Assembly (NCBI GenBank): GCA_963713545.1
Contig: CAVQME010000001.1
Location: 587,346 to 651,345, forward strand
Length of the DNA stretch: 64,000 nt
Source of the DNA: an uncultured Actinomycetes bacterium
GTDB taxonomy: Bacteria; Actinomycetota; Thermoleophilia; RBG-16-64-13
Direction: 5' to 3'
Below, piece by piece: positions 4,966 to 57,295 of this stretch (position 1 is the first letter of the stretch; every line of letters starts with the position of its first letter). A program made the position numbers and the translations under genes. Under the pieces are notes generated by a model. That model ran no database searches. It was given only the letters and a program-made list of their open reading frames with translations, and was not told the origin of the DNA.

Positions 4966-4969
4966 GGAC

Positions 4970-6070
4970 TTAAGCTACCTCCTTCGCGGGCACCAGCGTG
5001 GCGGCCGTCGCCGCGCGCAGGCACTCCGGGTCGGGCTGGTCCAGGGACTGGGTGAGGAAGTACGCTACCGCCGGGCAGCCGCCGTGGCAGACGGAGAAGC
5101 GGTCGCAGATGCGGCACGAGTCGACCTCGAGCTCCCGAAACCGCTGGAGCACCGGCGACGATTGGAAGATCTTCTCGAAAGGCTCGAGCGTCACGTTGCC
5201 GGCGAGAAACGCGGGATGGCAGAGGAAGGCACAGGGATAGACGCCGCCATCCGGCGCAACGGCGCAGGTCATCTTGGCCGCGCCGCACATGTCCAACCCC
5301 AGAGTCCGGCGGCTCTGCGGAGTGAGTGAGAAGAACGAGTCGCCGGTCAGGATCTCCGGGTGGTCTCCGAGGAAGCTGGAAAGCGCAAGAAGCTGGTCCC
5401 GGGTCAAGCGGTAGTCCTCCCAGCTCGCGCAGCCGGCTCCGGAGGGGCGGAAACGCGAGAGCCGGGTTTTGGCCCCGTAGCGGCGGGCGAGCCGATCGAA
5501 GTCGGCGATCTCGCCGGCGTTCGGGCGGGTGACCACCATGTTCAGGCTGAAGTCGGGGTAGTCCCGTTCGGCGAGAAGCTCGACGCCGGCGAGGATGCGG
5601 GCGAAGGTCCCGGCCCCCCGGATGCCGTCGTTGGTCTCGGCGCAGGCGCCGTCCAGGCTCACCTGCAGGTAGACGGGCGCCATCCTCAGCAGCTCATCGA
5701 CGAGAGAGTCGGCGAGCACCGTCCCGTTGGTGCTGACGCAGGTGGTGATGCCCTGGGAGTGGCAGTAGGCGAGGATGTCGAGAAAGTCGTCCCGCAGGAA
5801 AGGCTCCCCGCCTCCGAAGTTGATCTGGAAGATCTCCATGCGGGCCAGCTCGTCGATGAGCGCCCGGCATTGCTGAAGGTCGAGCGCACCCCCGCCCCGG
5901 CCGAGAGGGTCGTCGCTCCGCAACCCGTTCCCGCCCGGCGTTTCGCCGCCAAGTCCAGCGCGCACTCCGGCAGAGAGGCAGTGGGTGCAGCGGAGGTTAC
6001 ACGCCTGGGTGATCTCCCACGTGACGTTGACCGGCGCGCGAAGGGGGGTGCTACTCAGCCTGTGTGGCAA
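4970..6070 (-). CDS. mftC: Mycofactocin radical SAM maturase MftC (radical SAM + SPASM)
   Basis: CxxxCxxC radical SAM motif (TQACNLRCTHC) and a Cys-rich C-terminal SPASM domain. It directly follows mftB with overlap. Confidence 0.85.
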   Translation of the reverse strand: MPHRLSSTPLRAPVNVTWEITQACNLRCTHCLSAGVRAGLGGETPGGNGLRSDDPLGRGGGALDLQQCRALIDELARMEIFQINFGGGEPFLRDDFLDILAYCHSQGITTCVSTNGTVLADSLVDELLRMAPVYLQVSLDGACAETNDGIRGAGTFARILAGVELLAERDYPDFSLNMVVTRPNAGEIADFDRLARRYGAKTRLSRFRPSGAGCASWEDYRLTRDQLLALSSFLGDHPEILTGDSFFSLTPQSRRTLGLDMCGAAKMTCAVAPDGGVYPCAFLCHPAFLAGNVTLEPFEKIFQSSPVLQRFRELEVDSCRICDRFSVCHGGCPAVAYFLTQSLDQPDPECLRAATAATLVPAKEVA

Positions 6071-7822: not shown

Positions 7823-8194
7823 TCACCGGCGGCGGCGCCTTAGGCGCCGCGCCTCTCCTACCCGGAGGGTCAACCCTTCAGAATCCATGTGTTCCAGGAG
7901 CGCCTGCGCATACCGGCGGGAGGTGCCAAGCAGATCCCGGGCTTCAGCCAGGGTCAGCTGATCCGCCTCCTCCATGGCCGTTACCAGCCGGCCGATCAGA
8001 TCGTCCAGGCGCTCCGGTGGATAGTAGAGGTCTTCGCCCACCTTGACCAACCGGCCCTGACGCACCAAGGCGTCGACGATCCTCTTCGCGTCGCGCACAA
8101 CGAGTCCCGCCGCGGCGGCCGCCACGGTCACGCTCGGAGTCTCGGCGGCGCGTTCGGCGCTATCACCGTCGTGAACTGCGCCAGCAGGCTCTCG
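7823..8194 (-). CDS. selB: SelB C-terminal winged-helix fragment (frame-shifted continuation of selB)
   Basis: Only the last ~110 aa of ORF 7823..9064 look protein-like (GLVVRDAKRIVDALVRQGRLVKVGEDLYY...TSRRYAQALLEHMDSEGLTLRVGEARRL). The Arg-rich N-terminal part of that ORF is out-of-frame junk. Confidence 0.55.
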   Translation of the reverse strand, partial: REPAGAVHDGDSAERAAETPSVTVAAAAAGLVVRDAKRIVDALVRQGRLVKVGEDLYYPPERLDDLIGRLVTAMEEADQLTLAEARDLLGTSRRYAQALLEHMDSEGLTLRVGEARRLRRRRR

Positions 8195-9876
8195 ATCGCT
8201 CCCGCCTGCACATCGTCGGGCATTGCGGCGGCCCCAGCCCAGCGGAAGCCGTGCTCCGTTCGGACAACCTCCCCAGCCGTCTGCAGTCTCTCGAGGGCCG
8301 CGTCCAGGGCGAGCCATTCCTTGCCGCCGGACAGCTCTCTCCGCAACTCGCCCAAGGTCAGATAAGGATTCAGCGCATCGGTGGCAGCCCGCTCGCGCAG
8401 AGCCGTGAGGGCGACGTCGGTCAAGGCCAATAGCGAAGGCCCGTGGAATAAGCGAAGGTTGGCCGCCGTCGGTTCCGCCGCAGGTTCCGCCGCCGCCCCA
8501 GCCACGGTCTGGGCCCCGGGTGACCGTGCCGCGCCGTGCTGGTGGCGACAACCGCGGCCGCGGCCGTCCGCCAGCAGGCCGTTTACGGCCGCGCCGATCT
8601 CCGTTCGGCCGAATCGCCACAGATAGGGACTGTCCTCCAGTCTCCGGCGCGTGAGGGCCGATGGGAACGATTCTTCGAGCAACAAGGCGGCGATGAGGTC
8701 CGGTGGTCCTTCCTCCAGCAAGGCCAGGCGGTCGTGCCATCGAGGTCCGGTGCCGTGCTTGTGCGGCGCGGGATCGATCACTCGGCCCCCGCCAACGGTG
8801 GCGACAGGAGTCACCGAGCGCACGATGAACTGGTCTCCGGGATAAACAAGAGCGCGCTCCTCGAACCGCACCTGCGCATAGCAGGAGTCCCCGGGCTCCA
8901 GAGAATCGCGGTCGGCAAGCACGAATTTGGCAAGGATCTCCGCCGTGCCGTGGTCCACCCGCGCGCGTGAGACGCGGGGCACGGGGCCGGGTGCCTCCGG
9001 CAGCAGAGTCAACCGCACATCGGCCAGGTAGGTCGGCTCGATGACAGGGTCCTTCACCACCCATTGCCCGCGATCGAGCTCATCACGGTCGACCCCGGTC
9101 AGACTGAGCGCAACCCGCTGCCCACCGGCAGCCGCTGCCACCTCACGATCGTGTACCTGGACGCTCCTCACCCGCACCTCCCGCAGCTCGGCCGGACCCC
9201 GGGCGGTCCGGGGAGGGAGGATCGCGACCGTGTCTTCGGCGCTGAGACTCCCAGACCACAGCGTGCCGGTGACGACCGTGCCGATGCCCTTGAGGGAGAA
9301 GACCCGGTCTATGGGCATACGGGTGGCTGGGTATGCGGGGCGCGGCGGTACCGCCGCGCCCAGACGGTCGAGAGTAGCCACCAGTTCAGGCAACCCGTCG
9401 CCGGTCACGCCGCTCACCAGCACTATGGGAGCATCACCGTAGGGGGTAGCGGCGAGTAGGTCCTCCACGTCGGCCCGAGCCAGTTCGGCCAGGTCGGGAT
9501 CGACCATGTCGATCTTGGTGAGGGCGACCATCCCAGAGGGGATACCGAGCAGTTCGATGATGTGCAAGTGCTCACGGGTCTGCGGCATGACCCCGTCGTC
9601 GGCCGCCACCACCAGCATGAACAGGTCGATGCCCGTGGCGCCGGCCACCATGGTCTTGACGAAGCGCTCGTGCCCCGGTACGTCTACCACGCTCAGATGC
9701 CGGCCGCTCGGCAGCACCAGTTCGGCGAAGCCTAATTCGATGCTGATGCCCCGGGTCTTCTCCTCCTTGAGCCGATCGGTATCCCGGCCGGTCAAGGCTT
9801 TGACGAGGGTGGTCTTGCCGTGATCGATGTGCCCGGCGGTACCCAGGGTCAGAGGGACGCACGGCTCCCCCCGCAT
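8128..9876 (-). CDS. selB: Selenocysteine-specific elongation factor SelB (frameshifted; C-terminal WH domains continue in another frame to 7823)
   Basis: The G-domain [11 protein letters not shown]...DVPGHERF...TKID is followed by EF-Tu-like domains II/III and winged-helix repeats. The last ~110 aa, including the SECIS-binding WH4 (LTLAEARDLLGTSRRYAQALLEHMDSEGLTLRVGEARRL), are found in the frame of ORF 7823..9064. Confidence 0.8.
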
Positions 9877-9882
9877 CCGCAG

Positions 9883-11448
9883 TCACAGTACCGCCCCGGG
9901 CAACGATCGGCCGGCGTCACCAACCGCCATACCCACCAGCCGCTCGATGGCCCAGACGACGCTCTCGGCCGCAGGCTCGACCTCGCTCTCGGCCAGAGTC
10001 AGCACGTCCAGATGGAGACTGTCTTGGGACACGCGGGCCACCACGGGGATGGGGGCCCGGCGCAGGAGCGCTTCGAGCGCCGAGACCGTGGGGACTACCG
10101 CCCGTGTAGCTCCCGTATCCGCGGCCGCCGCCGACCCTCCGGGACCTCCGGCCACTCCCGCCGGCCGGGCAGATCCCCCTTGTGCTCCGCTCTGGACCGG
10201 TTGTTCCGGGAACCTGATGCGGACGGCATGCGAAGGCAGTTCCACCAGAGGCATCGAGCCGCCGCCGGCCCGAGCGCTCGACTCTTCCACTTCGAGAATG
10301 AAGCCGTCGCCGCAACGCCGCTCGATGGCCGCCTGCAGAGCCGCGGCCAGCGCGCCCGTCTCCGCCGCGGTCCGGCTGAGGTAGCGCAGTGTCGGGATCT
10401 CCTCGCGGGCCCTCTTGGGATCCTGATAGAGGCGAAGGGTCGCCTCCAAAGCCGCCAGCGTCATCTTATCCAGCCGCAGGGCGCGCGCCACCGGGTGTTT
10501 CCGCAGTCGGTCGATCACGTCGGCGCTGCCGAGCAGGATCCCGGCCTGGGGTCCCCCCAACAGCTTGTCCCCGCTGAAACAGACGACGTCCACGCCCGTC
10601 CGCAGCGACGCCGCCACCGATGGCTCTCCAGAGAACGCGTCGAGCTCGTAGAGCGCTCCACTGCCCAGGTCGTCGGCGACCGGCACTCCCCGGCGGCGGC
10701 CTAGATCCACCAATTCGGCCAGATCGGCTTCCTCGACGAAGCCAAGGATCCGATAGTTCGAGGTATGCACCCGCAGCAGCAAGGCGGTATCAGCCGTGAT
10801 GGCGGCTTCGTAGTCCGATATCCGGGTGCGATTGGTGGTCCCCACTTCCACGAGGCGGACGCTTCCGGCCCGCATGATCTCGGGCAGCCGGAAGGACCCG
10901 CCGATCTCGACCAATTGTCCCCTCGAGACGAGGACCTCCCGCCCCGAGGCCAGCGCCATCAGGAGGAGCAGCATCGCCCCTGCGTTGTTGTTGACCGCGA
11001 AGGCGGCTTCCGCCCCGGTCAGCCGAGTGAGCAGGGTCTCGACATGGATTTCCCGCCGGCCGCGTGTGCCTTCCTCGAGATCGTACTCCAGGTTGCTGTA
11101 CGAACGGGCCACTTCGACCACGCGCTCCACCGCGGCTTCGGCCAGGCAAGAACGGCCCAGGTTGGTGTGGACCACCACCCCGCTCAGGTCCAAGACCCGC
11201 CGCAGGCCGGGCTCAGCCCACGACTCCAGGATGACGGTCATCTCCGCCACGATCTTTTCCGGCGCGCCAGCGCCGCTCGTCGTCTCGCCCGCGATGATCG
11301 CCTGCCGGGCCGCTTCCACCGCCGCCCGAGCCGCCTCCACCACCTGTAGCCGCGGGTAGCGCTCCAGGAGCGCGAGCGCCGCCGGCCGGCTCGTCAGTTC
11401 CTCTACCGACGGGAGATCGCGCAGTGCCTTCTGCCTCGTGTCGTCCAT
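9883..11448 (-). CDS. selA: L-seryl-tRNA(Sec) selenium transferase SelA
   Basis: PLP-dependent SelA family with conserved blocks NLEYDLEEGTRGRR, VNNNAGAMLL and FSGDKLLGGPQAG. The likely start is MDDTRQKAL at 11448. The gene ends 7 nt before selB. Confidence 0.8.
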   Translation of the reverse strand: MDDTRQKALRDLPSVEELTSRPAALALLERYPRLQVVEAARAAVEAARQAIIAGETTSGAGAPEKIVAEMTVILESWAEPGLRRVLDLSGVVVHTNLGRSCLAEAAVERVVEVARSYSNLEYDLEEGTRGRREIHVETLLTRLTGAEAAFAVNNNAGAMLLLLMALASGREVLVSRGQLVEIGGSFRLPEIMRAGSVRLVEVGTTNRTRISDYEAAITADTALLLRVHTSNYRILGFVEEADLAELVDLGRRRGVPVADDLGSGALYELDAFSGEPSVAASLRTGVDVVCFSGDKLLGGPQAGILLGSADVIDRLRKHPVARALRLDKMTLAALEATLRLYQDPKRAREEIPTLRYLSRTAAETGALAAALQAAIERRCGDGFILEVEESSARAGGGSMPLVELPSHAVRIRFPEQPVQSGAQGGSARPAGVAGGPGGSAAAADTGATRAVVPTVSALEALLRRAPIPVVARVSQDSLHLDVLTLAESEVEPAAESVVWAIERLVGMAVGDAGRSLPGAVL

Positions 11449-11513
11449 CTCCGCCTCCTTCAAGACGCCGACGCCCGGTGAGGCCCCCTGGGTGCGTCCC
11501 TCGCTCCCCGCTC

Positions 11514-12536
11514 CTACTTCTCCCGTTCCAGGAAGAAGTCTGCCATCGACTCGAGGACATCGCGGGCAGGTGAGACGCGTAGACCGGCGAGACATTCCCG
11601 CGCCTCGCCGATGAGCGCCCGGGCTCGTGCCCGGGCGAAACCTATCGAGTCATACTTGTTCAGCAGCTCCAGCACCTCCGCGGCGTGGCCAAGGGTCTTG
11701 CCGTGCCCCAACCGCAGTATCTCGATCAGCCGTTCTCGGTCGGCCGGCTCGGCCACGGTGAGGCAATGGATCACCATGAGCGTCCGCTTGCTCTCGAGGA
11801 CGTCGGTGAGGTAGTCCTTGCCCATGGTGTCGACGTCGCCAAGGATGTTGAGAAGGTCGTCCTGTATCTGAAAAGCGATGGAGGAGCTCTTCCCAAAGCC
11901 TTCGAGCGCTTCTCTCTCGCTGTCCGTCGCCCCGCCGATGATCGCTCCCACCTTGACCGGAGCGATCCCGGAGTAGTAGCCGGTCTTGCCGAGCGCCATA
12001 CGCAGGTAATCGTCCAGAGTGAGCTCGTATACATCGTCCCGTACCCAGCCCACATCAAGGGCCTGACCCTCGACGGTGCGGGCGCTCATCTCGCCGATGA
12101 CGTCCAGGACAGCCAGCTTGGTGGCGTCGTCGAGCTGTGGATCGCGCACGACGATAGTGCACACCAGACCCAATGCATAGTCGCCGGCGTTGATGGCGAG
12201 GGGCACGCCGTGCAAGATATGCGCGCACTTCTGGCCGCGCCGCAGGAGACTCGCGTCCATGATGTCGTCGTGGATCAGAGCGGCCGCATGGAAGAACTCG
12301 ATCGCACACCCTGCGGATAGGGCCTTGCGCGGCTCGCCGCCCACCGCTTCGCACGCCACCATGGCCATCGCCGGTCGAGCCCGCTTGCCACCGCGGACTA
12401 TGAACTCGTCCAGGATGCCGTAGAGGTAGGTGTGAAGAGCACTGCCCTCGGGGACCCCGGCCAGGTAGGCGTGCAACCGCTCGTCGATAACGGGGGTGAC
12501 CGAGGTCAGATAGTCGATGAAGAGATCAACGCCCAT
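11514..12536 (-). CDS. Polyprenyl diphosphate synthase (geranylgeranyl/farnesyl diphosphate synthase family)
   Basis: First Asp-rich motif LIHDDIMD and second motif FQIQDDLLN in a trans-isoprenyl diphosphate synthase fold. The internal start MGVDLF is preferred. Confidence 0.8.
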   Translation of the reverse strand: MGVDLFIDYLTSVTPVIDERLHAYLAGVPEGSALHTYLYGILDEFIVRGGKRARPAMAMVACEAVGGEPRKALSAGCAIEFFHAAALIHDDIMDASLLRRGQKCAHILHGVPLAINAGDYALGLVCTIVVRDPQLDDATKLAVLDVIGEMSARTVEGQALDVGWVRDDVYELTLDDYLRMALGKTGYYSGIAPVKVGAIIGGATDSEREALEGFGKSSSIAFQIQDDLLNILGDVDTMGKDYLTDVLESKRTLMVIHCLTVAEPADRERLIEILRLGHGKTLGHAAEVLELLNKYDSIGFARARARALIGEARECLAGLRVSPARDVLESMADFFLEREK

Positions 12537-13989: not shown

Positions 13990-14075
13990 GCAGGCGTGAG
14001 TTGCTCGTGCCTCTTGTATCGTCCTATGATGGAGTCCTGTTTAGTCCGCGATTCGCTAGGATCGAGAGGGCCAGC

Positions 14076-15536
14076 ATGATCATCCGACCTGTCATCCTCG
14101 CGGGAGGTTCCGGCACCAGGCTGTGGCCGGCATCCCGGCAGCGCCATCCCAAGCAACTGCTCGCTCTAACCGGTCCGGAGTCGCTCTTGCAGGAGACCGC
14201 CACCCGCCTGCGAGGCTTCCCCGTGGGGACGGTCGCCGATCCCGTGGTGGTGACGAACGAGGAGTACCGCTTCATCGTGGTCGACCAACTGCGAGAAGTG
14301 GGCGTCGGAGCGCCGCAGGTCGTGCTGGAACCGGTGGGCCGCAACACAGCTCCAGCTTTGACATTGGCCGCACTCTTGCCCACCGACCCTGACGGCGACC
14401 CGATCCTCCTCACCATGCCGTCCGACCATCTCATCGGCAATATCTCCGCCTTCCATACCGCCGTCGCTGAAGGAGCTGAGCAGGCTCAGAAGGGCATGGT
14501 CGTCACGTTCGGCGTGGTGCCCGATCGACCTGAGACAGGCTACGGCTACATCCGAGTGGGACAGCCGGCACCCGCGGCACCAACGGCTCGCGTCCTTTCC
14601 GGCTTCGAGGAGAAGCCCGACCTGGAGACAGCCGAGAGCTATCTCGCGGGCGGCGATCACCTCTGGAACAGCGGCATATTCATGATGAAGCGCTCTGTGT
14701 GGCTAGCGGCCCTGGAACACTACCGACCTGCCATCAGCGCGGCCTGCCGGAAGGCCGTGGACGGCGCCAAGATAGACGGTCCTTTCGTGCGCCTGGGCAA
14801 GGCCGCCTTCACAGCCTGCCCTTCCGAATCCATCGACTATGCGGTGATGGAAGAGCTCGGCGCTTCCCCCACCGAGACCCAGGCGGTGGTAGTGCCGCTC
14901 GACGCCGGCTGGTCCGACGTCGGGAGCTGGCAGGCCATCTGGGCGGTCTCGGCCAAAGATGCATCCGGTAACACCACCCGGGGGGAGGTTGTGCTCGAGG
15001 ATACCCGAAACACGCTGGTGCACGCCTATTCGCGCTTGGTGGCGGTACTCGGCGGCGAGGATCTGGTGGTTGTCGAGACCGCCGATGCCGTTCTGGTGGC
15101 TGGTTCGGACAAGGCCGCCGATCTCAAGAAGCTTGTCGCTCGAGTCCAAGACTCCGACCCAGACCTTACTCTGAGCCACCGCCGAGTGCACCGTCCGTGG
15201 GGGCGGTTCGAATCCATCGACAGCGGGGAACGCTTCCAGGTGAAGCACATCGTGGTCAACCCGGGAGCCAGTCTGAGCCTTCAGTATCATAGGCGCCGGG
15301 CGGAGCATTGGGTGGTGGTCCGTGGGATCGCCGAGGTGACCGTCGGCAACCGGGTCTTCCGACTGACGGCGGACGAATCCACCTACGTACCCTTGGGCAC
15401 CCCCCACCGCCTTGCCAACCCCGGGCCGGAGCCTCTAGAGATCATCGAGGTGCAATCGGGCGAGTATCTGGGAGAGGACGACATCGTCCGCCTGGAGGAC
15501 AACTACGGGCGCATCGATCTCGTCGCGGAGCCCTAG
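14076..15536 (+). CDS. manC: Mannose-1-phosphate guanylyltransferase / mannose-6-phosphate isomerase (bifunctional ManC/CpsB type)
   Basis: N-terminal nucleotidyltransferase motif ILAGGSGTRLWP and a C-terminal cupin MPI domain (HRRVHRPWGRFESI...HHRRAEHWVVV). The internal start MIIRPVILAGG is preferred. Confidence 0.85.
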   Translation: MIIRPVILAGGSGTRLWPASRQRHPKQLLALTGPESLLQETATRLRGFPVGTVADPVVVTNEEYRFIVVDQLREVGVGAPQVVLEPVGRNTAPALTLAALLPTDPDGDPILLTMPSDHLIGNISAFHTAVAEGAEQAQKGMVVTFGVVPDRPETGYGYIRVGQPAPAAPTARVLSGFEEKPDLETAESYLAGGDHLWNSGIFMMKRSVWLAALEHYRPAISAACRKAVDGAKIDGPFVRLGKAAFTACPSESIDYAVMEELGASPTETQAVVVPLDAGWSDVGSWQAIWAVSAKDASGNTTRGEVVLEDTRNTLVHAYSRLVAVLGGEDLVVVETADAVLVAGSDKAADLKKLVARVQDSDPDLTLSHRRVHRPWGRFESIDSGERFQVKHIVVNPGASLSLQYHRRRAEHWVVVRGIAEVTVGNRVFRLTADESTYVPLGTPHRLANPGPEPLEIIEVQSGEYLGEDDIVRLEDNYGRIDLVAEP

Positions 15537-15609
15537 AACTCTTTTCAGAATGAAGCCGCGGCCGCCTAGTGCGCCCTGGGCGGCACGATAGTGCGTCCTC
15601 GGTCCCGCA
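15537..15609. repeat. Dispersed repeat copy 1 (core ...AACTCTTTTCAGAATGAAGCCGCGGCCGCCTAGTGCGCCCTGGGCGGCACGATAGTGCGTCCTCGGTCCCGCA)
   Basis: About 66/70 nt identical to 50396..50469, with a related copy at 25068..25140. It starts exactly at the manC stop codon and contains GC-rich palindromes (CCGCGGCCGCC / GGCGGC). Confidence 0.6.
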
Positions 15610-16563: not shown

Positions 16564-18174
16564 ATGGATGTGCTGCGCGGACTCCAGGAAGGGTGGATGG
16601 AGATGCCAGAGCTATTTGGGAATCCCTACGTACTGCCGGCCGTCATCGTGGTCGTCTTGCTGCTGGTGCTGCTGCTCATCGTGATGATGCGCAAACGTCG
16701 AGGCACGAGCCAGAGCGAAGTCCGGTCGATGGAACGAGTAGCGGCTCCGCCTGCAGGACCCGCGGCGGCAGCCAGCATCATGCCTATGGCCGCCGCCGAC
16801 TCGCAGCCGGGACCCTTACCGAGTCAAGCGCCGAGTCAAGCCACGGGAGCGCCGGACACATCCCTCGTCCCCCAGCCTCAATCCCCTGCGGCGGCCGCTC
16901 AGCCCGTTGTCGCAAAAGAGCGCCCCGCACCTGTCACGCCTGTTGCCAAGGCAACCAAGTTCCCGGAGCGTGCGGCACTCAACGACGATCCGCTGCGGGC
17001 CGTCATTCTCGACATCGTGCACGGATGGGGCGACCTGACCAGCGAGGACACCAACCGCCTCAACCTGTTCCGGGCGGACAAGGTCTTGGCTGCCGCCGAG
17101 GCGATCGACCTCCCGAAGGAAGACGCGGGCGGCGGCTACGCCCGCACCCGTTTGCTGCAGATACGGAAGTACGCGGCCGACAAACAGCTCCAGCAGAAGC
17201 CCCCCGAAGCCGCGCCCGAGGTGCAACCGTCAGGAGTGGAACCGGTGCTCACAATGGAGGCAGTGGAGACCGATCCCGAGGAGACCGCGACTCTGGTAGC
17301 CGAGGTCGAGCAGACCCCGAGTCAGGAGACCCGGGCCGAGGAACTTGCCGCGGGAGAGCCCCAGCCCGAAGGACCGCCACCTTCGTGGGAACTGCCTCAG
17401 CCGACGGAACACCTTGCCGGCGCCGGTCTGGCGACCGCGGCCTTCGCAGCTACGCCCCACGACGAGAAGATCGAAGACCGCCTGAGCTTGGAGAAGGAGC
17501 TCGGCGAGGATGAGGGCGAGTGGACGCAGTCGGCGGAGCCGATCGTGATACCACCGTGGCCCGAGGAGTCAAGGCCTGAGGAGTCTGTGGCGACGTCTCC
17601 GTGGCCGGAGGATTCGCAGCCCGTCGAGACGACCGCGTCGTCGCCGTGGCCGGAGGAGTCGCAGCCTTTGACGCCGGCCACAGCTTCTCCTTGGTCGGAG
17701 GAGCCGACGGGTTGGGATATCGACGAGCCACCGGTCCTAGAGGAGGTCCCGGTCGAGTTGGACGATGAGCAGCCTCTGCCGGCGGCGGCGGTCGCCGACA
17801 TAGGACCTGCTGCCGCAACCGCAGCTACCGCGATCACCGAGGAGACGACGCCGGTGCAGGACATCACCGACCAGTTCCAGGCGCCTGATGATTCCCTTTC
17901 GACTCTGCATGGCAGGGTGAGGACCGCAGAGGAGCTCATGGCCCTGCCCGCAGGCGATCAAGCCGACATGCTCGCCTTCCTGGAGCCGCCTGAACTCGCA
18001 CGCGTATTCGAGGCCAGCGAAGATCGAAGGCTCAAGAAGGGGGTGATCGACGTCCTTGAGAACCTCGGTTCCCCCGGGTCTCTGGACGTGCTTCGCCGCT
18101 GCCTTGACGACGCAGACCCGGAGATGCAGGTCTACGCTCTGGACGCCGCAGACCGGCTTCTAGGAGTAGAGTAG
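16564..18174 (+). CDS. Membrane-anchored acidic repeat protein with C-terminal HEAT-like repeats (hypothetical)
   Basis: N-terminal TM helix, an acidic Pro-rich region with three SPWPE(E/D)S repeats, and a C-terminal HEAT/PBS-lyase-like segment (VIDVLENLGSPGSLDVLRRCLDDADPEMQVYALDAADRL). An alternative start MEMPELF at 16597 has a GGAAGGG RBS. Confidence 0.5.
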   Translation: MDVLRGLQEGWMEMPELFGNPYVLPAVIVVVLLLVLLLIVMMRKRRGTSQSEVRSMERVAAPPAGPAAAASIMPMAAADSQPGPLPSQAPSQATGAPDTSLVPQPQSPAAAAQPVVAKERPAPVTPVAKATKFPERAALNDDPLRAVILDIVHGWGDLTSEDTNRLNLFRADKVLAAAEAIDLPKEDAGGGYARTRLLQIRKYAADKQLQQKPPEAAPEVQPSGVEPVLTMEAVETDPEETATLVAEVEQTPSQETRAEELAAGEPQPEGPPPSWELPQPTEHLAGAGLATAAFAATPHDEKIEDRLSLEKELGEDEGEWTQSAEPIVIPPWPEESRPEESVATSPWPEDSQPVETTASSPWPEESQPLTPATASPWSEEPTGWDIDEPPVLEEVPVELDDEQPLPAAAVADIGPAAATAATAITEETTPVQDITDQFQAPDDSLSTLHGRVRTAEELMALPAGDQADMLAFLEPPELARVFEASEDRRLKKGVIDVLENLGSPGSLDVLRRCLDDADPEMQVYALDAADRLLGVE

Positions 18175-23639: not shown

Positions 23640-23712
23640 GGGGGTATAGCTCAGTTGGGAGAGCGTCGCGTTCGCATCGCGAAGGCCAGGGGTTCGAATC
23701 CCCTTACCTCCA
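23640..23712 (+). tRNA. tRNA-Ala (anticodon CGC)
   Basis: Cloverleaf GGGGGUA/UA/GCUCAGUUGGGAGAGC/G/UCGCG-UUCGCAU-CGCGA/AGGCC/AGGGG-UUCGAAU-CCCCU/UACCUCC/A. It has the G3:U70 alanine identity pair and the T-loop GTTCGAATC. CCA is not encoded. A TATAAAT -10-like box lies at 23614-23620. Confidence 0.85.
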
Positions 23713-23748
23713 CTCCTTCCCTCCCTTGTCGGCCGTCCTCATGAAGGG

Positions 23749-24162
23749 GTGACCACCGTGCCTCTCATCGAGATCAGAGTCTCCTCCCCGGCACGCGAGG
23801 TGCTGGTGGATATCAGCGACAGGGTCCAGCAGGCCGTCACCCAGTCCCATCCGACACTGAGCGGCATGGTGAGCATCTTCGTGCCTCACACCACCGCCGG
23901 CGTCACCATCAACGAGGGCGCCGATCCCTCCGTGGCCCGCGATATCGTCGAGGGCCTTGCCCGCCTCGTCCCCCGCGAGGCCGCCTATCGTCATAGCGAG
24001 GGGAATTCCGACGCGCACATCAAGGCGAGTCTCGTAGGCAGCAGCGTCGCGGTCCCCGTGGAACAGGGACGGTTGCGGCTTGGCACGTGGCAGAGCATCT
24101 ATCTGGCCGAATTCGATGGTCCTCGCACCCGGCGGGTATGGATAGTGCCCGCGCCTGCGTGA
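23749..24162 (+). CDS. YjbQ/UPF0047 family protein (secondary thiamine-phosphate synthase-like)
   Basis: 137 aa with the conserved UPF0047 pattern (HTTAGVTINE...GNSDAHIKASLVGSSVAVPV...LGTWQSIYLAEFDGPRTR). Confidence 0.7.
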   Translation: MTTVPLIEIRVSSPAREVLVDISDRVQQAVTQSHPTLSGMVSIFVPHTTAGVTINEGADPSVARDIVEGLARLVPREAAYRHSEGNSDAHIKASLVGSSVAVPVEQGRLRLGTWQSIYLAEFDGPRTRRVWIVPAPA

Positions 24163-25121
24163 GCCCCGGGACGTCCGGGGCCGGCCCTCAGAACGGTCCC
24201 GGTTCGGAGCTGGGCGAGGCGGTGGAGGAGTTCATCCGAGATCAGCTGAGCAGTCCGGAGATCAACAATCTCGGCCCGGGCACCGACGGGAAGGCCTGGG
24301 ACGGCGTCCTGTTGGGGTTCTCCAGCGGAGCAGACGAGCTCTACGAGTTCCTCAAGGAGCACATCGGACCGTTCCACTGGACGCCGGCCGAAGCCTTCGC
24401 CCTGGGCACGTCGACGGACCGGCCGGTGTCTGGCCCAGAAGATGCGGCCGATGCCTCAGCGGGCGAGCTGACGGTGATCAGTTGGGCCCTCTGTCAGACC
24501 GAGAGTGCCAAAGCTGCGAACCGGGCGGAGACCCTGATGCCGTCGGAACCATGGGCGCGATCCCGGATCTTCGGGCAGAACTGCAATCGCCGCCTGCACA
24601 AGGCGCTCGTCCAGATGCTCGCCGACCTTGGATACGAGGCCGTAGCCCCCGGGTTGCTCCGGCAGTGGGCCGAGGAGTCCTCTCCCCGGTTCGGAAGAGC
24701 ATGTACTTGGTCCGAGCGTCACGTAGCCCATATCTCTGGTCTGGGGACCTTCGGTCTGTCGGGTGGGCTGATCACCGAGCGGGGGCAGGCGGTCAGATTC
24801 GGATCGGTGGTAGTCCGCGCGCAGATCCCGGTCACCCTGCGGCGCTATACCGACCCCTTCGCCTACTGCCTCTTCTTTGCCCGAGGCACCTGCGGGGCTT
24901 GCGCGCGTCGCTGCCCTGTCGGGTCGATCAGCGAGGATGGTCGCGACAAGGCAGCCTGTGCCACACATCTCATTCCGGTGAGCGAAGAGTTCGTCAAGCA
25001 GGAATACGGTTTCGACGGTTACGGGTGCGGTCTCTGCCAGACCAAAGTGCCCTGCGAATCGGGCATCCCCAAGAACTCGTTTCAGAATGAAGCGCCGCCG
25101 CTGGGTCCGCCGAGAGTCTAG
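24087..25121 (+). CDS. Epoxyqueuosine reductase QueG-like [4Fe-4S] protein
   Basis: QueG/DUF1730-like core (HISGLGTFGLSGGLITERGQAVRFGSVVV) plus 4Fe-4S Cys clusters (CGACARRCP, CGLCQTKVPC). The last 17 aa are contributed by repeat copy 2. The true start may be MDSARAC at 24138. Confidence 0.5.
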   Translation: MAEHLSGRIRWSSHPAGMDSARACVSPGTSGAGPQNGPGSELGEAVEEFIRDQLSSPEINNLGPGTDGKAWDGVLLGFSSGADELYEFLKEHIGPFHWTPAEAFALGTSTDRPVSGPEDAADASAGELTVISWALCQTESAKAANRAETLMPSEPWARSRIFGQNCNRRLHKALVQMLADLGYEAVAPGLLRQWAEESSPRFGRACTWSERHVAHISGLGTFGLSGGLITERGQAVRFGSVVVRAQIPVTLRRYTDPFAYCLFFARGTCGACARRCPVGSISEDGRDKAACATHLIPVSEEFVKQEYGFDGYGCGLCQTKVPCESGIPKNSFQNEAPPLGPPRV

Positions 25122-47743: not shown

Positions 47744-50071
47744 ATGGAGCGCACACAGACCGGTCCGGCATCAGACAGACGACGCCTGCTCCAGCTGCGT
47801 TCGCCACTCCGACATCTGGGCACGCGACCTGGCGGCGCGACAGGCCTCGCGTCCGTCTGCGCACTCCTTGCTCTGAGTCTCGCCATCGTTGGCTGCACTG
47901 ACGCGGGATCCCCCACCACCGCATCCGGCCCCTCCGGAGGCGCGGCCCCCGTGGTCACGAGCGAAAGCCCTTCCACCAGCACCTCCGGCCCGGCCGGGAC
48001 CGCCACGTCCGGAGGAGTCGCGCCAGCCGTTTTGACCGGCCCGTACAAAGAGCCGGATTACTTGGATCCTCAGCCGGTGGACCTGACCTCGATCTCCAAT
48101 CTCGACAAGGCGGGTCTGTCCGACGCCGAGAAGCAGGTGCTGGCGCGGCAGAGCTTCGTGGCCGTGGCCGAGCCGCCCGAGGAGGGGTCCTGGAAGTTCT
48201 GGCAGGTCTACGAGGCCGCCCGCTACGCCGGCCTACCCCTGTTGGTGACCACCGACTCCGTCCTCAATACCTATCACGGTCTTTTCGATACCCTGCTCCA
48301 GCGGATGGAGGAGGCAGCGCTGTTCGAGCAGGCCGTTACTATGACGGAGGCCTTGTACTCTGCCGCCTCCGACCAATTGAATGCCGCGACCGACCCCACA
48401 GTCAGGGAAGAGGCCGGCCTCAACATGGCCTACTTCGCCGTCGCGAAGGCGCTGCTGACAGGCACGAACCAGCTCCCCGGCATAGTCACGGGAGAGGGAG
48501 CGGAGACGTTGAGAGCCGCCCTCGACCTTGCCGACAAGGAGGTCGCCTTGATCGAGGCGGCCGGCGGTACCGAAGAGTCCCCCATCCTCGGTTACACCGA
48601 AGACTACAGCCAGTACAAGCCGCGCGGTCACTACACCCGCAGCGAGACCCTCCAGCGTTACTTCAAAGCGATGATGTGGTTCGGCCACACGGGCTACTTC
48701 ATCAATCCGCGCAGCCCGGACATCACCGAAGAGGAGGCGGCCAGCCTGACCCGGCGCGCCATCCTCATCGCCTCGTCCCTGAACGGCTCGACCAAAGAAG
48801 CGTGGCAGGCGATCTACGAACCCACGAGCTTCCTGGTCGGCCGGGCAGATGATCTGACCGTCGACGATATGCGGCAGGTGCTGCAGCAGGTGTTCGGCAC
48901 GGCCCAGCCCGCCCCAGACGACCTTGCCGACGCCGGGAAGATCGCGACCGTCCGGGGGGAACTGAACAAGCTCCCCGCTCCCAAGATCCTCTCGGCCGTG
49001 GTCCGCGCGCCGGGCGATACCGAGAACCGCGAGGAGAACGAGCGCAGCTTCCGGGTCATGGGACAGCGCTACATCCCCGACTCCTACGCCTTCCAGCAAC
49101 TGGTGTGGGCCTACGTGGGCGAAGAGCAGCCACCCGAGGCGAAACGCGACCTTCCCATGGGTCTCGACATAATGACGGTGCTCGGCAGCGACCAGGCCTA
49201 TAGGCTAGAGACAGAAGACTACGACCAAGATCGCTACACGAACTGGGAGCAGCAGATCAAAAAGGTGAACGGCGAGTTCGTGGCGCGCACCGCCGATCTG
49301 TGGCCGGCGAACCTCTACACCGGCTGGCTCGAGTCCCTGCAACGCGTGATGGCGTTCCCGGCCGACGGCGCCCCCGACTTCATGAAGTCCCGGGTGTGGG
49401 CCCGCAAGAGCCTGAACGTGGCCCTGGGCAGTTGGACGGAGCTGCGGCACGACACCATCCTCTACGCCAAGCAGTCGGTGACCGCGGAAGGTGACGGAGG
49501 CGAGAAGCCGAAGGTAGCGGGATACGTGGAGCCGTATCCGGCCTTCTACGCCAAGATCGCCGAGTTGGCCACCACGCTGCGTCAAGGCCTCCTCGACTAT
49601 GGCTTGATCGATTCCGAATCCGCCAACAAGTTGGAGATGATGATCGAACTGGCCGACACCTTGGCCACGATCGCCGAGAAGGAGTTGGCGGGCGAGGAGC
49701 TCACCTTGGACGAGGAGGCGACGATTGCCGGGTACGGACACTATCTGGAGACCCTGGAGCAGTTCGACGACGAGGTGGAGGGGCGGACGCTCTCACCCAC
49801 GGCCGAGAAAAGCCCGCTGGCAGCCGACGTGCACACCAGCTACAACTCCGACCTGGCGTTGGAAGAGGCGACCGGGTATCCACTTGTCCTGTACACAGCC
49901 TTTGAGCTTGGCGGGAAGCTGCAGCTGTTCGCCGGAGCCTCTTACGCCTATTACGAGTTCACCGTCCCTCTGGCAGAACGGCTCACCGACGAGGAGTGGG
50001 TGGCACAGCTGGACTCCGGCCAAGCCCCCCCACGCCCCGCCTGGACCGACGAGTGGATCGTGGGGGACTAA
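47744..50071 (+). CDS. DUF3160 family secreted lipoprotein
   Basis: Tat-like RRRLLQL plus lipobox IVGC, a Ser/Thr/Gly-rich linker, and the DUF3160 signature (PRGHYTRSETLQRYFKAMMWFG). Confidence 0.7.
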   Translation: MERTQTGPASDRRRLLQLRSPLRHLGTRPGGATGLASVCALLALSLAIVGCTDAGSPTTASGPSGGAAPVVTSESPSTSTSGPAGTATSGGVAPAVLTGPYKEPDYLDPQPVDLTSISNLDKAGLSDAEKQVLARQSFVAVAEPPEEGSWKFWQVYEAARYAGLPLLVTTDSVLNTYHGLFDTLLQRMEEAALFEQAVTMTEALYSAASDQLNAATDPTVREEAGLNMAYFAVAKALLTGTNQLPGIVTGEGAETLRAALDLADKEVALIEAAGGTEESPILGYTEDYSQYKPRGHYTRSETLQRYFKAMMWFGHTGYFINPRSPDITEEEAASLTRRAILIASSLNGSTKEAWQAIYEPTSFLVGRADDLTVDDMRQVLQQVFGTAQPAPDDLADAGKIATVRGELNKLPAPKILSAVVRAPGDTENREENERSFRVMGQRYIPDSYAFQQLVWAYVGEEQPPEAKRDLPMGLDIMTVLGSDQAYRLETEDYDQDRYTNWEQQIKKVNGEFVARTADLWPANLYTGWLESLQRVMAFPADGAPDFMKSRVWARKSLNVALGSWTELRHDTILYAKQSVTAEGDGGEKPKVAGYVEPYPAFYAKIAELATTLRQGLLDYGLIDSESANKLEMMIELADTLATIAEKELAGEELTLDEEATIAGYGHYLETLEQFDDEVEGRTLSPTAEKSPLAADVHTSYNSDLALEEATGYPLVLYTAFELGGKLQLFAGASYAYYEFTVPLAERLTDEEWVAQLDSGQAPPRPAWTDEWIVGD

Positions 50072-50083
50072 GATCGTACTCGC

Positions 50084-50374
50084 TTAGGCGCCCGGCGCGG
50101 CCCGGGCGATGATGGCCGTACCTTCGATGCCGAGCCGTAGCTGAAATGACACCGGTCCGGCCTCGGCCGCAATCAGTTCGAGCAGAGCATCGCGCGCGGC
50201 TCGGATGATGGCGTACTCATCCCGCTCCAGCCGGGCCGCGACCGCTGAGTCGACTCCCACCATCGATCGGCACCAGGTCTCACCCGAGTAGATCACGTCG
50301 AAAGTGACCGTGTAGGCGTCCGGTGTGTCGCCGTCCACGATCGACACGAGTTCGACGTCCATGAATATGGTCAT
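50084..50374 (-). CDS. Hypothetical small protein (~96 aa)
   Basis: Coding-like GC3. The internal start MTIFMDVEL is preferred, because the ORF-track start lies inside the repeat element. Confidence 0.4.
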   Translation of the reverse strand: MTIFMDVELVSIVDGDTPDAYTVTFDVIYSGETWCRSMVGVDSAVAARLERDEYAIIRAARDALLELIAAEAGPVSFQLRLGIEGTAIIARAAPGA

Positions 50375-50395
50375 GCCGGACGCTCCGCGGACTAA

Positions 50396-50557
50396 CAACT
50401 CGTTTCAGAATGAAGCCGCGGCCGCCTAGCGCGCCCTGGGCGGCACGATAGTGCGTCCTCAGTCCCGCAAATAGCGCTGCTATTCGCGCTCCCTGCGTCC
50501 TTCTCTGGCGCGTGCCCAGCACGTCCCTGGCGGCGGAGCTTCATTCTAAAACGAGTT
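50396..50557. repeat. MITE-like copy 3 of the dispersed repeat, with terminal inverted repeats AACTCGTTTCAGAATGAAGC ... GCTTCATTCTAAAACGAGTT
   Basis: The 5' 74 nt are near-identical to copy 1. The right end is the inverted complement of the left end. The element fills the whole intergenic space between the nrdJ stop and the small ORF. Confidence 0.6.
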
Positions 50558-53500
50558 CTAGGCGCACTTGGAATAGCCGCACGAACGGCAGACTACGCAC
50601 CCGCCCTCGTGCTCCACCGCTCCGCCACAGTCGGGACAGGCGCCCTGCGCCAGCGCTATGGGGATCTCCAGCTGACCCACGGTCTTGCCGCCGTTGCCGC
50701 TGGCGAGGTGGTACTTGTCGGCCAGAGCCTTGCCTATGGCGTCGGGGCAGGAAAGTATCTGATTGGGCCCGAATCCGAGCGGCACATGGCAGCGGATGCC
50801 CTTGAGCTGCTTGACGATCTTGTCGGGCGGAACCCCGTAGCGGAAGGCCAGGGAGATCAGTCGGCCGATAGCTTCGGTGGACGCCGAGGCGCAGCCCCCG
50901 GCCTTGCCCATATTTGCGAAGACTTCCCTGGGGCCGAAGTCGTCTTCGTTGACGGTGACATACAGACTGCCGCACCCAGTCACCTTCTCCCGAGTCTCTC
51001 CGCGCAGCACGGGAGAGCGACTAGGCCGTACCGGCATGACAGCGGTACCCTGGGGGCCGAGCTCCATCTGCACGGCCTGGCCGGTCTCGGCTCCCTTGCG
51101 CTTCACCTCGCCGATGTTCAGCACCTGCTCCTGCCGGGAGCCATCGCGATAGATGGTGACCCCTTTGACCCCGAGTTCGTAGGCGAGTAGGTAGACGCGC
51201 TCCACGTCTTCGGGCCGAGCCTGGTTGGGGAAGTTGACCGTCTTGGACACGGCGTTGTCGACGTCGTCTTGGAAAGCGGCCTGCATGCGGATATGCCATT
51301 CAGGAGACACGTCGTGGGCAGTGACGAATACCTTCTTGAGGTCCTCGGGCACGTCCATGTCGTGCAGCCCGCCGATAGTCGCGATGCTCTTCATGAGGTC
51401 GTCTGAGTAGAGACCGCGCTGCTTGAGCACCTCCTCGAGCGCTGGATGGGCCTCGGGAAGCTCGGTGTTATCCATCACGTTGCGGATGAACGCCAGGGCG
51501 AAAATAGGCTCCACTCCGCTGGAGCAGCCGGCGATGATAGAGATAGTGCCGGTTGGAGCGATAGTGGTGAGGGTGGCGTTGCGCACCTCCCTAACCTTGG
51601 CCTTCCAGGTGCTGCTCTCCCAGTTGGGGAAGACTCCCCTGTCGCGCGCCAGGTCTTCCGAGGCCTTGATGGCCTCCTCGTGGACGAAACCCATCAGCTC
51701 ATGCGCGAGCTTGATGGCGCCGTCGGAATCGTAGGCGATGCCAAGCTCTACCAGCATGTCGGCCCACCCCATGACCCCCAGCCCGACCTTGCGGTTTCCT
51801 TTGGTCATCCTATCGATCTCGGGCAAGGGATACCGGTTCATGTCGATGACGTTATCGAGGAAATGGACGCCGGTGCGCGTCACCCGGCGGAGGCGCTCCC
51901 AATCCACGGCGCCGTCCTTGACCATGACGGCGAGGTTGATGGAGCCGAGATTGCAGCTTTCGTAGGGCAGAAGAGGTTGCTCACCACAGTTTGATATGAC
52001 GATACCATTGCCGATGAAGGAATGGGTCAGGGGTTCGGTCAGATCAAAGACCGCTTCAACGCCTTCGGGAACGACTGCTTCCACACGCGCGACGAACCGC
52101 TCCGAGTAGGGTCCGCGTTTGTAGCCGGCGACCGTCCGAGTCAGCGCGGCCATCTTCGCCCTGCTCAAGAACCCGACCTCGTCCGCGAAGCGGAGGAGGC
52201 TCCCACTGGCGACATGCAGTTCGTGAACCGGACGCACCTGGTATCGCTTCATACCTCCCTTGCCGTCGGGCAGCAGGGCGGTATCCCGTCCCCTCTTACG
52301 GTCTCGGAAGATTCGGCTGAAAATGCCAAAGTTGAGCAGGATGCGCTGTACATCCTGCAGCAAGTCGAGACCGACCGAGGTCAAACGCACCGCACGTCCG
52401 TTGCGAGGCTGGTCTAGCACAGTCCCATCCGCAGTAAACAAGGCCTGCAAGAATCCGCGCTGCATATCCTCACAACCCCACAAGACCGGCTCGGGTACCA
52501 GCAGTTTCTCGTCGACCAGACCGTACTCCTCGGCGATCTCGCGCAGCCGCACCGATTGGACCCGGGTCTCGTTTCGTTCAGCCACGGCGACACCCGTGCT
52601 CGAGCAGGCGCCACCGCGCGAGGGACGCACCACCGCCTCCACCGCCCGGCGGAAGGCGGGGGCAAGCTCTTGCTCCTCGCCCCAGAACGAGAGCACCGCC
52701 CGGTCGGATTTGACCGTGCCGTCGCCCACCAGCCAGCCCAGGACTCGTCCCAGTTCCAGTGAGCCTTCGCTGCCAAACCCCCCTTTGCGGTTGAGCACGT
52801 GCACCTCGTCCCCGATGACGAGGTCGCCCGCCGGCACCCACCCCCGTTCAGTCATGATCTTGTGATCGGGCGTCACCCGGATCTCGTAGCCCTCCCTGGT
52901 GGTGACCCGCACCACCTGCTTGTCGCCGCTATAGAACACCGGTGACGCGTCGACCAGAGATCCAACGGCCGCCCCGCGGGTCCCTCCCCCGGCTGCCTTC
53001 TTGGTCGCACCCGCCGCCATGCGCCCATCGACCGTGGCCTGGACCGATTCGCCATTCAAGAAGAGGTCGAGGGCGCGCACCAGTCCCCAGCCGGTGTAAA
53101 CCAGGGTGTCCCCGGTAATGCAAGGGTTGGTCGACTCGATCTCACCCAGCTTCGGCGTGGGGTTGTCCCGATTCAGCCGATCTAGAAAGACGATGCCCGG
53201 CTCGCCGTTCTTCCAGGCCAGTTCGACGATGAGATCGAAGATCTGGCGGGCGTTCAACCGCCCTACCTCAGTCATATCCCGGGGGTTCCGCAACGCATAG
53301 TCCTCGCCCGCCAGCACCGCTCCCATGAACTCCTCGGTGACCCCCACGGAGATGTTGAAGTTGTTGAGAATATGCTCGTCTTCTTTGGCCCGGATGAACT
53401 CCACGATATCGGGGTGGTCGACCCGCAATATGCCCATGTTGGCACCCCGGCGCGTGCCTCCCTGCTTGATGGTCTCTGTGGCCATGTCGAACACCCGCAT

Positions 53501-53974
53501 GAACGACACCGGCCCACTCGCCACACCCATGGTGGAGCGGACCAGATCGTTCTTGGGGCGCAACCGGCTGAAGCTGAATCCCGTGCCCCCACCCGACTGA
53601 TGCACCAACGCGGCGTCGCGGATCGCGGTGAAGATGGAATCCATGCTGTCCTCAACCGGCAGGACGAAGCAAGCGGACAGCTGCTGTAGCTCGCGCCCTG
53701 CGTTCATGAGAGTCGGCGTGTTGGGCAGGAACTCCAGTTGCGCCATCACCTCGAAGAACTCGGAGACGGTGGCATCGAGAGAGGCATCGGGATGGTAGGT
53801 GAGGTCGGCTTGGGCAATGTTCTCCGCCACCCGCGCGAACATGTCCGCGGCACTCTCGAGAGGTTCACCACTCTCGGTGCGTTTCAAGTACCGCCTCTGT
53901 AGGACCTTCTTGGCACTAGGGGAGAGCCTCTTGTCCAACTCGGCCGCAGCAGCACTCAGTTCAGCGACGGTCAT
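50558..53974 (-). CDS. nrdJ: Adenosylcobalamin-dependent ribonucleoside-triphosphate/diphosphate reductase, class II (NrdJ), intein-containing
   Basis: The extein (~760 aa) has the class II RNR catalytic motif NPC|GEQP interrupted by an intein, and a C-terminal Zn-ribbon (CPDCGG...CVVCRSCG). It is preceded by nrdR. Confidence 0.9.
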   Translation of the reverse strand: MTVAELSAAAAELDKRLSPSAKKVLQRRYLKRTESGEPLESAADMFARVAENIAQADLTYHPDASLDATVSEFFEVMAQLEFLPNTPTLMNAGRELQQLSACFVLPVEDSMDSIFTAIRDAALVHQSGGGTGFSFSRLRPKNDLVRSTMGVASGPVSFMRVFDMATETIKQGGTRRGANMGILRVDHPDIVEFIRAKEDEHILNNFNISVGVTEEFMGAVLAGEDYALRNPRDMTEVGRLNARQIFDLIVELAWKNGEPGIVFLDRLNRDNPTPKLGEIESTNPCITGDTLVYTGWGLVRALDLFLNGESVQATVDGRMAAGATKKAAGGGTRGAAVGSLVDASPVFYSGDKQVVRVTTREGYEIRVTPDHKIMTERGWVPAGDLVIGDEVHVLNRKGGFGSEGSLELGRVLGWLVGDGTVKSDRAVLSFWGEEQELAPAFRRAVEAVVRPSRGGACSSTGVAVAERNETRVQSVRLREIAEEYGLVDEKLLVPEPVLWGCEDMQRGFLQALFTADGTVLDQPRNGRAVRLTSVGLDLLQDVQRILLNFGIFSRIFRDRKRGRDTALLPDGKGGMKRYQVRPVHELHVASGSLLRFADEVGFLSRAKMAALTRTVAGYKRGPYSERFVARVEAVVPEGVEAVFDLTEPLTHSFIGNGIVISNCGEQPLLPYESCNLGSINLAVMVKDGAVDWERLRRVTRTGVHFLDNVIDMNRYPLPEIDRMTKGNRKVGLGVMGWADMLVELGIAYDSDGAIKLAHELMGFVHEEAIKASEDLARDRGVFPNWESSTWKAKVREVRNATLTTIAPTGTISIIAGCSSGVEPIFALAFIRNVMDNTELPEAHPALEEVLKQRGLYSDDLMKSIATIGGLHDMDVPEDLKKVFVTAHDVSPEWHIRMQAAFQDDVDNAVSKTVNFPNQARPEDVERVYLLAYELGVKGVTIYRDGSRQEQVLNIGEVKRKGAETGQAVQMELGPQGTAVMPVRPSRSPVLRGETREKVTGCGSLYVTVNEDDFGPREVFANMGKAGGCASASTEAIGRLISLAFRYGVPPDKIVKQLKGIRCHVPLGFGPNQILSCPDAIGKALADKYHLASGNGGKTVGQLEIPIALAQGACPDCGGAVEHEGGCVVCRSCGYSKCA
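51989..53122 (-). mobile_element. Intein (378 aa) with LAGLIDADG homing-endonuclease domain inserted at the NrdJ active-site Cys
   Basis: It begins CITGDTLV after ...ESTNP and ends ...GIVISN followed by the C+1 Cys of CGEQPLLPYESCNLG. Two LAGLIDADG-like blocks are present: LGWLVGDGTV and LQALFTADGTV. Confidence 0.8.
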
Positions 53975-57194: not shown

Positions 57195-57295
57195 CGCCTC
57201 GCCTCTGGCCCTGCGCCGCCCCCGCTCTGCGCCGTTCCGCGCCCTGCGCCGCCCCTCGCTCTGCGCCGTTCCGCACCCTGCGCCGCCCCGCGCTT
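57195..57295. repeat. Tandem 33-bp GC-rich direct repeat (2 copies + partial) CTCTGCGCCGTTCCGC(G/A)CCCTGCGCCGCCCC
   Basis: Visible direct duplication in the intergenic region between the kinase and the GerMN gene. Confidence 0.5.

Follow-up and report, generated by a model that had tools for sequence, protein, structure and literature searches.

The window, by which we mean the whole stretch of 64,000 nucleotides that was analysed, contains an nrdJ-like gene and, downstream of it, a small conserved ORF, both read from the minus strand (Table 1). The gap between the two is 183 nt. An inverted-repeat element and its target-site duplication take 50393–50561, and 18 nt, including a GGAG, lie between the duplication and the ATG of the small ORF. 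The Pfam search of the 96-aa small ORF found no family, and exact-protein look-ups gave no record for either the window NrdJ or the small ORF. The nrdJ-like gene encodes a protein of 1138 aa with a LAGLIDADG intein at roughly 51990–52925 (−). The homologues closest by extein identity, P0021 (98%) and P0023 and P0024 (94%), are intein-free proteins of 760 aa, and the more distant homologues P0001–P0020 carry the intein; thus, the intein is polymorphic among close relatives. Beyond the small ORF, a 775-aa DUF3160 gene (47744–50071, +) stands between a NifU/IscS pair and the small ORF. In L079 and L080 the small ORF leads directly to NifU, and the P0026 contig has DUF3160 at the same place.

The 20-mer AACTCGTTTCAGAATGAAGC is found at 50397–50416 (+) and its reverse complement, with one mismatch, at 50538–50557; the window reads ..GGACTAA C AACTCGTTTCAGAATGAAGC .. 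GCTTCATTCTAAAACGAGTT C TAGGCGC.. across the element. With up to three mismatches, the 20-mer has four sites in the window against 0.01 expected (100 shuffles), the remaining two being at 15537 and 25074. The sequence-only reading described a unit at 50396–50557 with 20-bp inverted repeats. The sequence is as described and the inverted arms are present; however, comparison of other copies with the window copy places the true ends one base further out, at 50396 and 50558. The element is therefore 163 bp and not 162 bp, and the true arm length is 21 nt, with 20 of 21 positions complementary in the window copy. The terminal base of the left inverted repeat is C in the sub-family of the window and G in most other sub-families.

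The same reading had the right repeat ending in the nrdJ TAG. The stop, at 50560–50558, does touch the element, and the overlap is a single base, the terminal G. It also placed the ORF-track start of the small ORF inside the element, and this is borne out: the mechanical start is a TTG at 50398, and the orthologues begin at the ATG equivalent to 50374 (MTIFMD..). The gene model is corrected accordingly, with the small ORF starting at 50374 and not at 50398. The element has no conserved ORF of its own, and the frames that open at the ATG within the repeats are interrupted or out of register from one sub-family to another.

Table 1 Features of the element, its neighbours and the other copies in the window (A1, alignment of the full-length copies, with copy 3 oriented as the window + strand)
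Feature	Position	Strand	Remarks
Complete copy (copy 3), very probably a MITE	50396..50558	.	163 bp; alignable over its whole length with 76 further distinct full-length copies
Left terminal inverted repeat, CAACTCGTTTCAGAATGAAGC	50396..50416	+	A1 columns 2–21 conserved 90–100%
Right terminal inverted repeat, GAACTCGTTTTAGAATGAAGC (minus-strand reading)	50538..50558	−	The nrdJ stop has its third base in the terminal G (50558)
Left copy of the 3-bp target-site duplication	50393..50395	.	TAA on +, TTA on −; position from clean filled/empty pairs and the family flank pattern
Right copy of the 3-bp target-site duplication	50559..50561	.	TAG on +, CTA on −; one of its 3 bases differs from the left copy
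nrdJ-like class II ribonucleotide reductase gene, with intein	50558..53974	−	Pfam Ribonuc_red_lgN/lgC, TSCPD, LAGLIDADG_3, Intein_splicing
Small conserved ORF downstream of nrdJ	50084..50374	−	96 aa; synteny and N-terminus kept in L079, L080 and L203
Central hairpin, CGCAAATAGC / GCTATTCGCG	50465..50489	.	A1 columns 75–83 pair with 95–103; stem covaries between sub-families
Unpaired block GCGTCCTCAGTC, first copy of the GCGTCCT direct repeat	50453..50464	+	Invariant or near-invariant A1 columns; unpaired in the consensus fold
Unpaired block CTCCCTGCGTCCTT, second GCGTCCT copy	50489..50502	+	Conserved; unpaired in the consensus fold
Copy 1, remnant (left 74 nt of the element)	15536..15609	+	70/73 identical to copy 3 over 15537–15609, then similarity ends
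Copy 2, 29-nt terminal remnant	25073..25101	+	Inside the 3′ end of ORF 24087..25121 (+)

Target site and the empty nrdJ site

The flanks of the family have the form 5′-C TNA G/AACTCG...CGAGTT/C TNA G-3′. In the sub-family of the window (MAGs of 62–66% GC), CGAGTT is invariably followed by G and not C. Therefore, the base at this place is part of the element, as is, by symmetry, the G that precedes AACTCG; with the terminal bases assigned in this way, the duplication is 3 bp. In 22 of 58 copies the 3-mers on the two sides of the element agree, as judged by the middle N of TNA, for which 2000 shuffles average 7.5 and reach at most 16. Two filled sites also have clean empty counterparts. L070 reads ..ggcca-TAA-[163 bp]-TAA-gcgacc.. 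against ..ggcca-TAA-gcgacc.. in the empty orthologue L161, and L123 reads ..gggc-TGA-[178 bp]-TGA-gcgacg.. against ..gcgc-TGA-gcgacg.. in the empty L116. Target-site duplications, which the earlier reading had named as a check on its proposal, are thus present in the family. The commonest mismatch between the two copies of the duplication is TAA/TAG, with ten cases. A 2-bp TA duplication at CTAG, of the IS630-like kind, was considered for this mismatch and rejected, as the end of the element that carries the extra base varies and the two clean empty sites show 3 bp.

We collected NrdJ homologues and compared their contigs at the junction between nrdJ and the small ORF. A comparison with empty sites in relatives had also been suggested, and such sites exist: the nrdJ locus is without the element in L078 (98% extein identity), L079, L080 and L203. 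The L078 junction, GCGCCTAG/TCTGCGG (more fully, ..AAGTGCGCCTAG/TCTGCGGGGCGTCCGGC..), equals the window flanks minus the insert. Its empty site is GCGC-CTA-GTCT, and the minus strand of the window is ..AAGTGCGCC-TA-[G AACTCG...CGAGTT G]-TTA-GTCCGCGGAGCGTCCGGC-ATG; the excess of the window over L078 is exactly the element and one copy of the duplication. L079, L080 and L203 keep the pair of nrdJ and the small ORF with unrelated spacers of 28–84 nt, and in the gene map of P0026 only 56 nt separate the two genes, which leaves no room for the element. Given these empty sites, the insertion is specific to the lineage of the window. The tail of L078 resembles a decayed second element by eye, but the local alignment scores are weak.

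The sequence-only reading proposed insertion at a TAG/CTA target. The target is instead the TNA of C-TNA-G, with its 3-bp duplication; the TAG itself stands as a rebuilt codon, composed of TA from the duplication and the terminal G of the element. The element inserted at ..GCC-TA-G.., where nrdJ ends, and the duplicated TA and the terminal G re-created the TAG and left the end of NrdJ (..CGYSKCA) unaltered. The last base of the nrdJ stop codon is thus transposon-derived. The insertion also placed 166 bp more between nrdJ and the small ORF, which now follows a hairpin of about −100 kcal/mol; the TAG-to-ATG spacing is 17 nt before the insertion and 183 nt now. The duplication of the window copy is imperfect (CTA versus TTA on the minus strand), and this mismatch may be either a later substitution or have originated at insertion.

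Distribution, size classes and relatives of the family

In a scan of one genome per species, the 20-mer was found in 77 stretches, 70 of them in 27 GC-rich MAGs that are labelled Gaiella, Gaiellales, Thermoleophilia or Actinomycetes. The other seven stretches are in low-GC genomes, where the rest of the element is absent, and are read as chance matches. The 20-mer is also found in at least 120 soil metagenome contigs, and many of these contigs stop inside the element. Further copies with the same inverted repeats, whose absence would have spoken against the sequence-only reading, are therefore numerous in both MAGs and soil metagenomes.

When a few mismatches are allowed and the arms are counted with the terminal base, 85 arm pairs are spaced 161–165 bp, and further size classes occur at 53–61, 73–74, 128 and 177–179 bp. 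The 77 distinct full-length copies align end to end with a mean column identity of 80%. One orthologous site holds a 161-bp element in L119 (4870–5030) and a 60-bp version in L177 (1171–1230), which shows that the short classes are internal deletions arising in place. By sequence identity, the family has apparently been active recently: the copies of L009, L040 and L045, at unrelated loci of the MAG CAWDXC01, are identical over 163 bp, four further CAWDXC01 copies differ by 1–4 bases, and the window copy differs from the identical trio at 4 of 163 positions. A separate observation is that L059 (JAOSKU010000001.1, Thermoleophilia bacterium FR_37) carries four diverged copies of the family within 5 kb (765–5870), one of which (5677–5860) has altered termini. 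Such diverged copies mean that exact-match scans undercount the copies per genome.

The inverted repeats, the duplications, the empty sites and the many other copies support the MITE-like character first proposed for the unit, and 50396–50558 is very probably one copy of a non-autonomous DNA transposon (MITE).

The same ends are also found on longer units, in L086 (1144–1761, 618 bp), L096 (340–1125, 786 bp) and L151 (729–1441, 713 bp). L086 and L096 have CTTAG flanks on both sides, and the right end and flank of L151 are more degenerate. Each of the three units contains one ORF for a small signal-peptide protein, followed by a GC-rich terminator-like hairpin; the Pfam search of these passenger proteins found no family.

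Both other repeats of the window are truncated, decayed remnants of the element, and one of them appears to encode a protein tail. A ManC-like gene (14001..15536; Pfam NTP_transferase, MannoseP_isomer) ends in TAG, and the G of this stop is the first base of copy 1. Copy 2 is read in frame as ..K NSFQNEAPP.. and then for seven more codons, with the stop 18 nt further on, in an ORF of 344 aa that has a weak 4Fe-4S match (Fer4_16). The remnant appears to supply some of the final 16 residues (NSFQNEAPPLGPPRV) of this ORF, the C-terminus of which may be transposon-derived.

Some further features of the window were recorded. SelB-like (GTP_EFTU and Beta-barrel_SelB) and SelA (selenocysteine synthase) genes adjoin at 8128–11595 (−), and this adjacency implies selenoprotein synthesis. 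The sole tRNA is tRNA-Ala(CGC) at 23640–23713. Three tandem 45-nt units (17555–17675) lie inside ORF 16564..18174, which has no Pfam family, and a 17-nt periodic CCGC-rich repeat is located near 57219–57286.

Stop codons, fold and conserved centre

An incoming long ORF with high third-position GC faces 45 of 116 element ends. Of these 45 ORFs, 33 stop inside the duplication or the terminal base, and five more run on to a TGA inside the repeat. Counted from the first A of AACTCG, the stops lie at −4 (TAA or TGA), −3 (TAG) and −2 (TGA). A stop is found at an end in 46 of 82 distinct loci (56%) and at both ends in 13, where the element takes up precisely the interval between two convergent genes. 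Left ends are abutted by a gene in 26 cases and right ends in 33, with no strand preference. For comparison, the other CTNAG sites of the window overlap a stop in 7 of 125 cases, 100 being coding and 18 intergenic; among the non-coding sites alone, the fraction is 7 of 25 (28%). The target holds TAA, TGA or T-TAG, and the insertion rebuilds the stop. Thus, the bias toward stop codons arises largely because the target is often a stop codon, the element rebuilds it and insertions inside genes are lost, a last step that we infer. In genomes of 65–72% GC, the TNA of CTNAG would often coincide with a stop codon (TAA-G, TGA-G or T-TAG); insertions there would be neutral and those inside genes would be purged, so that copies would accumulate at stops. 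A signal for stop-codon read-through or recoding was also considered, prompted by the 20-mer after TAG and its reading as NSFQNEA in copy 2. This was ruled out, as the motif follows TAA, TGA and TAG alike, occurs on either strand and has duplications at its borders.

Folding of the window copy gives −100 kcal/mol (z = −6.4). RNAalifold on A1 gave an almost empty consensus of −2.6 kcal/mol, owing to central indels; we therefore built the whole-length hairpin from per-sequence folds and counted its pairs on A1. In this hairpin, 84.5% of cells are paired, compared with 31–44% with slid partners. Pairs changing on both sides number 29 against 20.4 ± 2.3 in shuffles (0/500), and the corresponding cells number 215 against 74; A1 is composed of related sequences, so that the shuffle control overstates significance and the slid control is the safer one. 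The covariation of the central hairpin is illustrated by column pair 77/101 (36 copies with GC, 32 with CG) and by column pair 80/98 (25 copies with AU, 23 with CG, 23 with GC). The near-invariant unpaired blocks around it, GCGTCCTC(A/G)GTC and CTCCCTGCGTCCTT, are direct and not inverted repeats. With this strong conservation and its covarying stem, the centre is under more constraint than a passive element would require, which counts against a plain MITE.

It is conceivable, though we consider it unlikely, that the mobile element has also been co-opted, with the hairpin and the central module serving as a 3′-end or intercistronic RNA element or as a site for a host protein. On the same low footing, the role at the RNA level would be that of a stabiliser, a processing site or a bidirectional attenuator. 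A co-opted role would explain the retention at gene ends, and it agrees with the stability of the window copy, with the covariation that supports the whole-length fold, with the two invariant unpaired GCGTCCT blocks around a covarying hairpin and with the 56% of copies that abut a stop codon. However, the abutting genes show no orientation bias, the orthologous sites manage without the element, and relatedness among sequences can by itself lift them above shuffle controls, even where no structure exists. The 28% of non-coding CTNAG sites that overlap a stop mean that target choice and selection explain most of the bias. Regarding known RNA elements, Rfam 15 gave only a tRNA above the gathering threshold in the whole window and no match at E ≤ 10 over 50300–50650, and no promoter-like or terminator-like site was found at the element.

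A related suggestion, to which we give a similarly small chance, is that the central module and the whole-length fold-back are under selection for a function of their own, with a mobiliser that possibly lacks matching ends. The module could be a bidirectional intercistronic or 3′-end RNA module, or a landing pad for a host factor or transposase. A transposase without matching ends would, if real, explain why none was found, and the relatives with passengers would then turn the family into a small vehicle that delivers genes for secreted proteins in soil Actinobacteria.

The proposed mobilising enzyme and known systems

A non-autonomous transposon of the kind preferred here would be moved by a DDE transposase acting in trans, which would bind the repeats and make a 3-bp staggered cut. 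The search for a cognate transposase family, also suggested by the sequence-only reading, found none in the window or in 1.3 Mb of loci. The Pfam scan of 51 likely window genes contained no transposase. The 64 unpaired arms have no adjoining transposase and no recurrent protein beside them; they are contig ends or decayed copies beside ordinary genes. A tblastn search of the 1.3 Mb of loci with an IS5-type consensus and two actinobacterial IS5-family transposases returned nothing, and long inverted pairs of the repeat core were absent except for the arms of separate MITE copies in L059. With the element as query, plasmid blastn gave one chance-level match only and the viral contig scan gave none.

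As judged from the target and the repeat ends, the mobilising enzyme is most likely a member of the IS5 family (IS427/IS1031-type), as that of IS1237 of Leifsonia is. IS1237 of Leifsonia xyli, an IS5-family element and the only lead that we located in the literature, has the repeats GAGGTGGTTTCAGTAGTCG and a TTA/TAA duplication (PMC2516522, Table 1). A 3-bp duplication and a GA/GG start of the repeats are described for IS1237/ISLxx6 (PMC2516522), and both are found in the element, with its 3-bp TNA/TWA duplication and its terminal bases GA. The actinobacterial host is a further point of likeness. Aligned with GAACTCGTTTCAGAATGAAGC, the IS1237 repeats share GA at positions 1–2 and GTTTCAG at 7–13, in total 12 of 19 bases, and differ at the other seven. 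IS1237, at 899 bp, is autonomous and encodes a transposase; the window element has no such gene. The IS5-family elements L201 and L202 (Streptomyces and Corynebacterium) have unrelated ends of the GGG(C/T)C..GTCC type. The element would work like an IS5-family derivative and is a putative member of the family, the assignment resting on the duplication and the 12/19 match to published repeat ends.

Spread as a REP/REPIN-type palindrome by a RAYT (Y1, IS200/IS605-like) in place of a DDE enzyme is highly improbable. The element is a short intergenic hairpin repeat with many copies and no adjoining transposase, as such palindromes are; however, the filled/empty pairs show precise 3-bp target duplications, and Y1 transposases are not known to make such duplications. 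Moreover, the element has 21-nt inverted repeats in a single 163-bp unit and not doublets of 20–40-nt palindromes, and the 5′ GTAG tetranucleotide conserved in REPs is absent from it. A stable fold between two co-oriented genes would also suit an ordinary intergenic hairpin or terminator specific to the lineage, or an inverted repeat that arose by chance, but an immobile sequence is already refuted by the distribution of the 163-bp unit over dozens of unrelated loci in 27 genomes, by the duplications and by the filled/empty pairs, with a repeat expected 0.01 times by chance in the window and no terminator-like site. An integron attC and an NrdR box were set aside on inspection, as their sequence patterns do not fit.

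The preferred reading, a MITE, places the element beside several known systems. Correia/NEMIS (Neisseria), RUP (Streptococcus pneumoniae), ERIC and QMITE1/2 (Coxiella) are likewise units of 100–200 bp with inverted repeats and a short duplication. They share with it the many dispersed, mostly intergenic copies, the long-hairpin transcripts, the internally deleted size variants and a presumed mobilisation in trans. The element differs from them in its unrelated sequence, in its host clade of uncultured Gaiellales/Thermoleophilia, in a terminal base that re-creates a stop and in its strongly conserved centre. The duplication of Correia and RUP is TA, and that of the element is the 3-bp TNA. Tourist MITEs and PIF-Harbinger elements (e.g. 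mPing) have a 3-bp TWA/TNA duplication in an extended palindromic target and an IS5-related DDE transposase; however, they are eukaryotic, need two proteins and are unrelated in sequence. MICs (e.g. MIC231 of Bacillus cereus) are units bounded by inverted repeats that carry passenger genes and no transposase. The relatives in L086, L096 and L151 are like them in carrying a passenger, and the window copy has none.

Bacterial MITEs are described in general in a review (PMC10969869). The family appears to be previously undescribed, a statement that needs a fuller literature check: we found no published description of it and none of mobile elements of Gaiellales/Thermoleophilia, and two recent surveys, PMC10969869 and PMC11602168, mention neither these groups nor the family.

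In kind, the element is an ordinary bacterial MITE. What raises it above the routine is the insertion that rebuilds stop codons, the constrained centre and the cargo-carrying relatives. It adds a widespread MITE family to the Gaiellales/Thermoleophilia, which are abundant soil bacteria and almost entirely uncultured, and the metagenome contigs that end within the element identify it as a practical cause of assembly breaks. In a GC-rich genome, the TNA target and the stop-rebuilding terminal G would let the transposon park harmlessly at gene ends.
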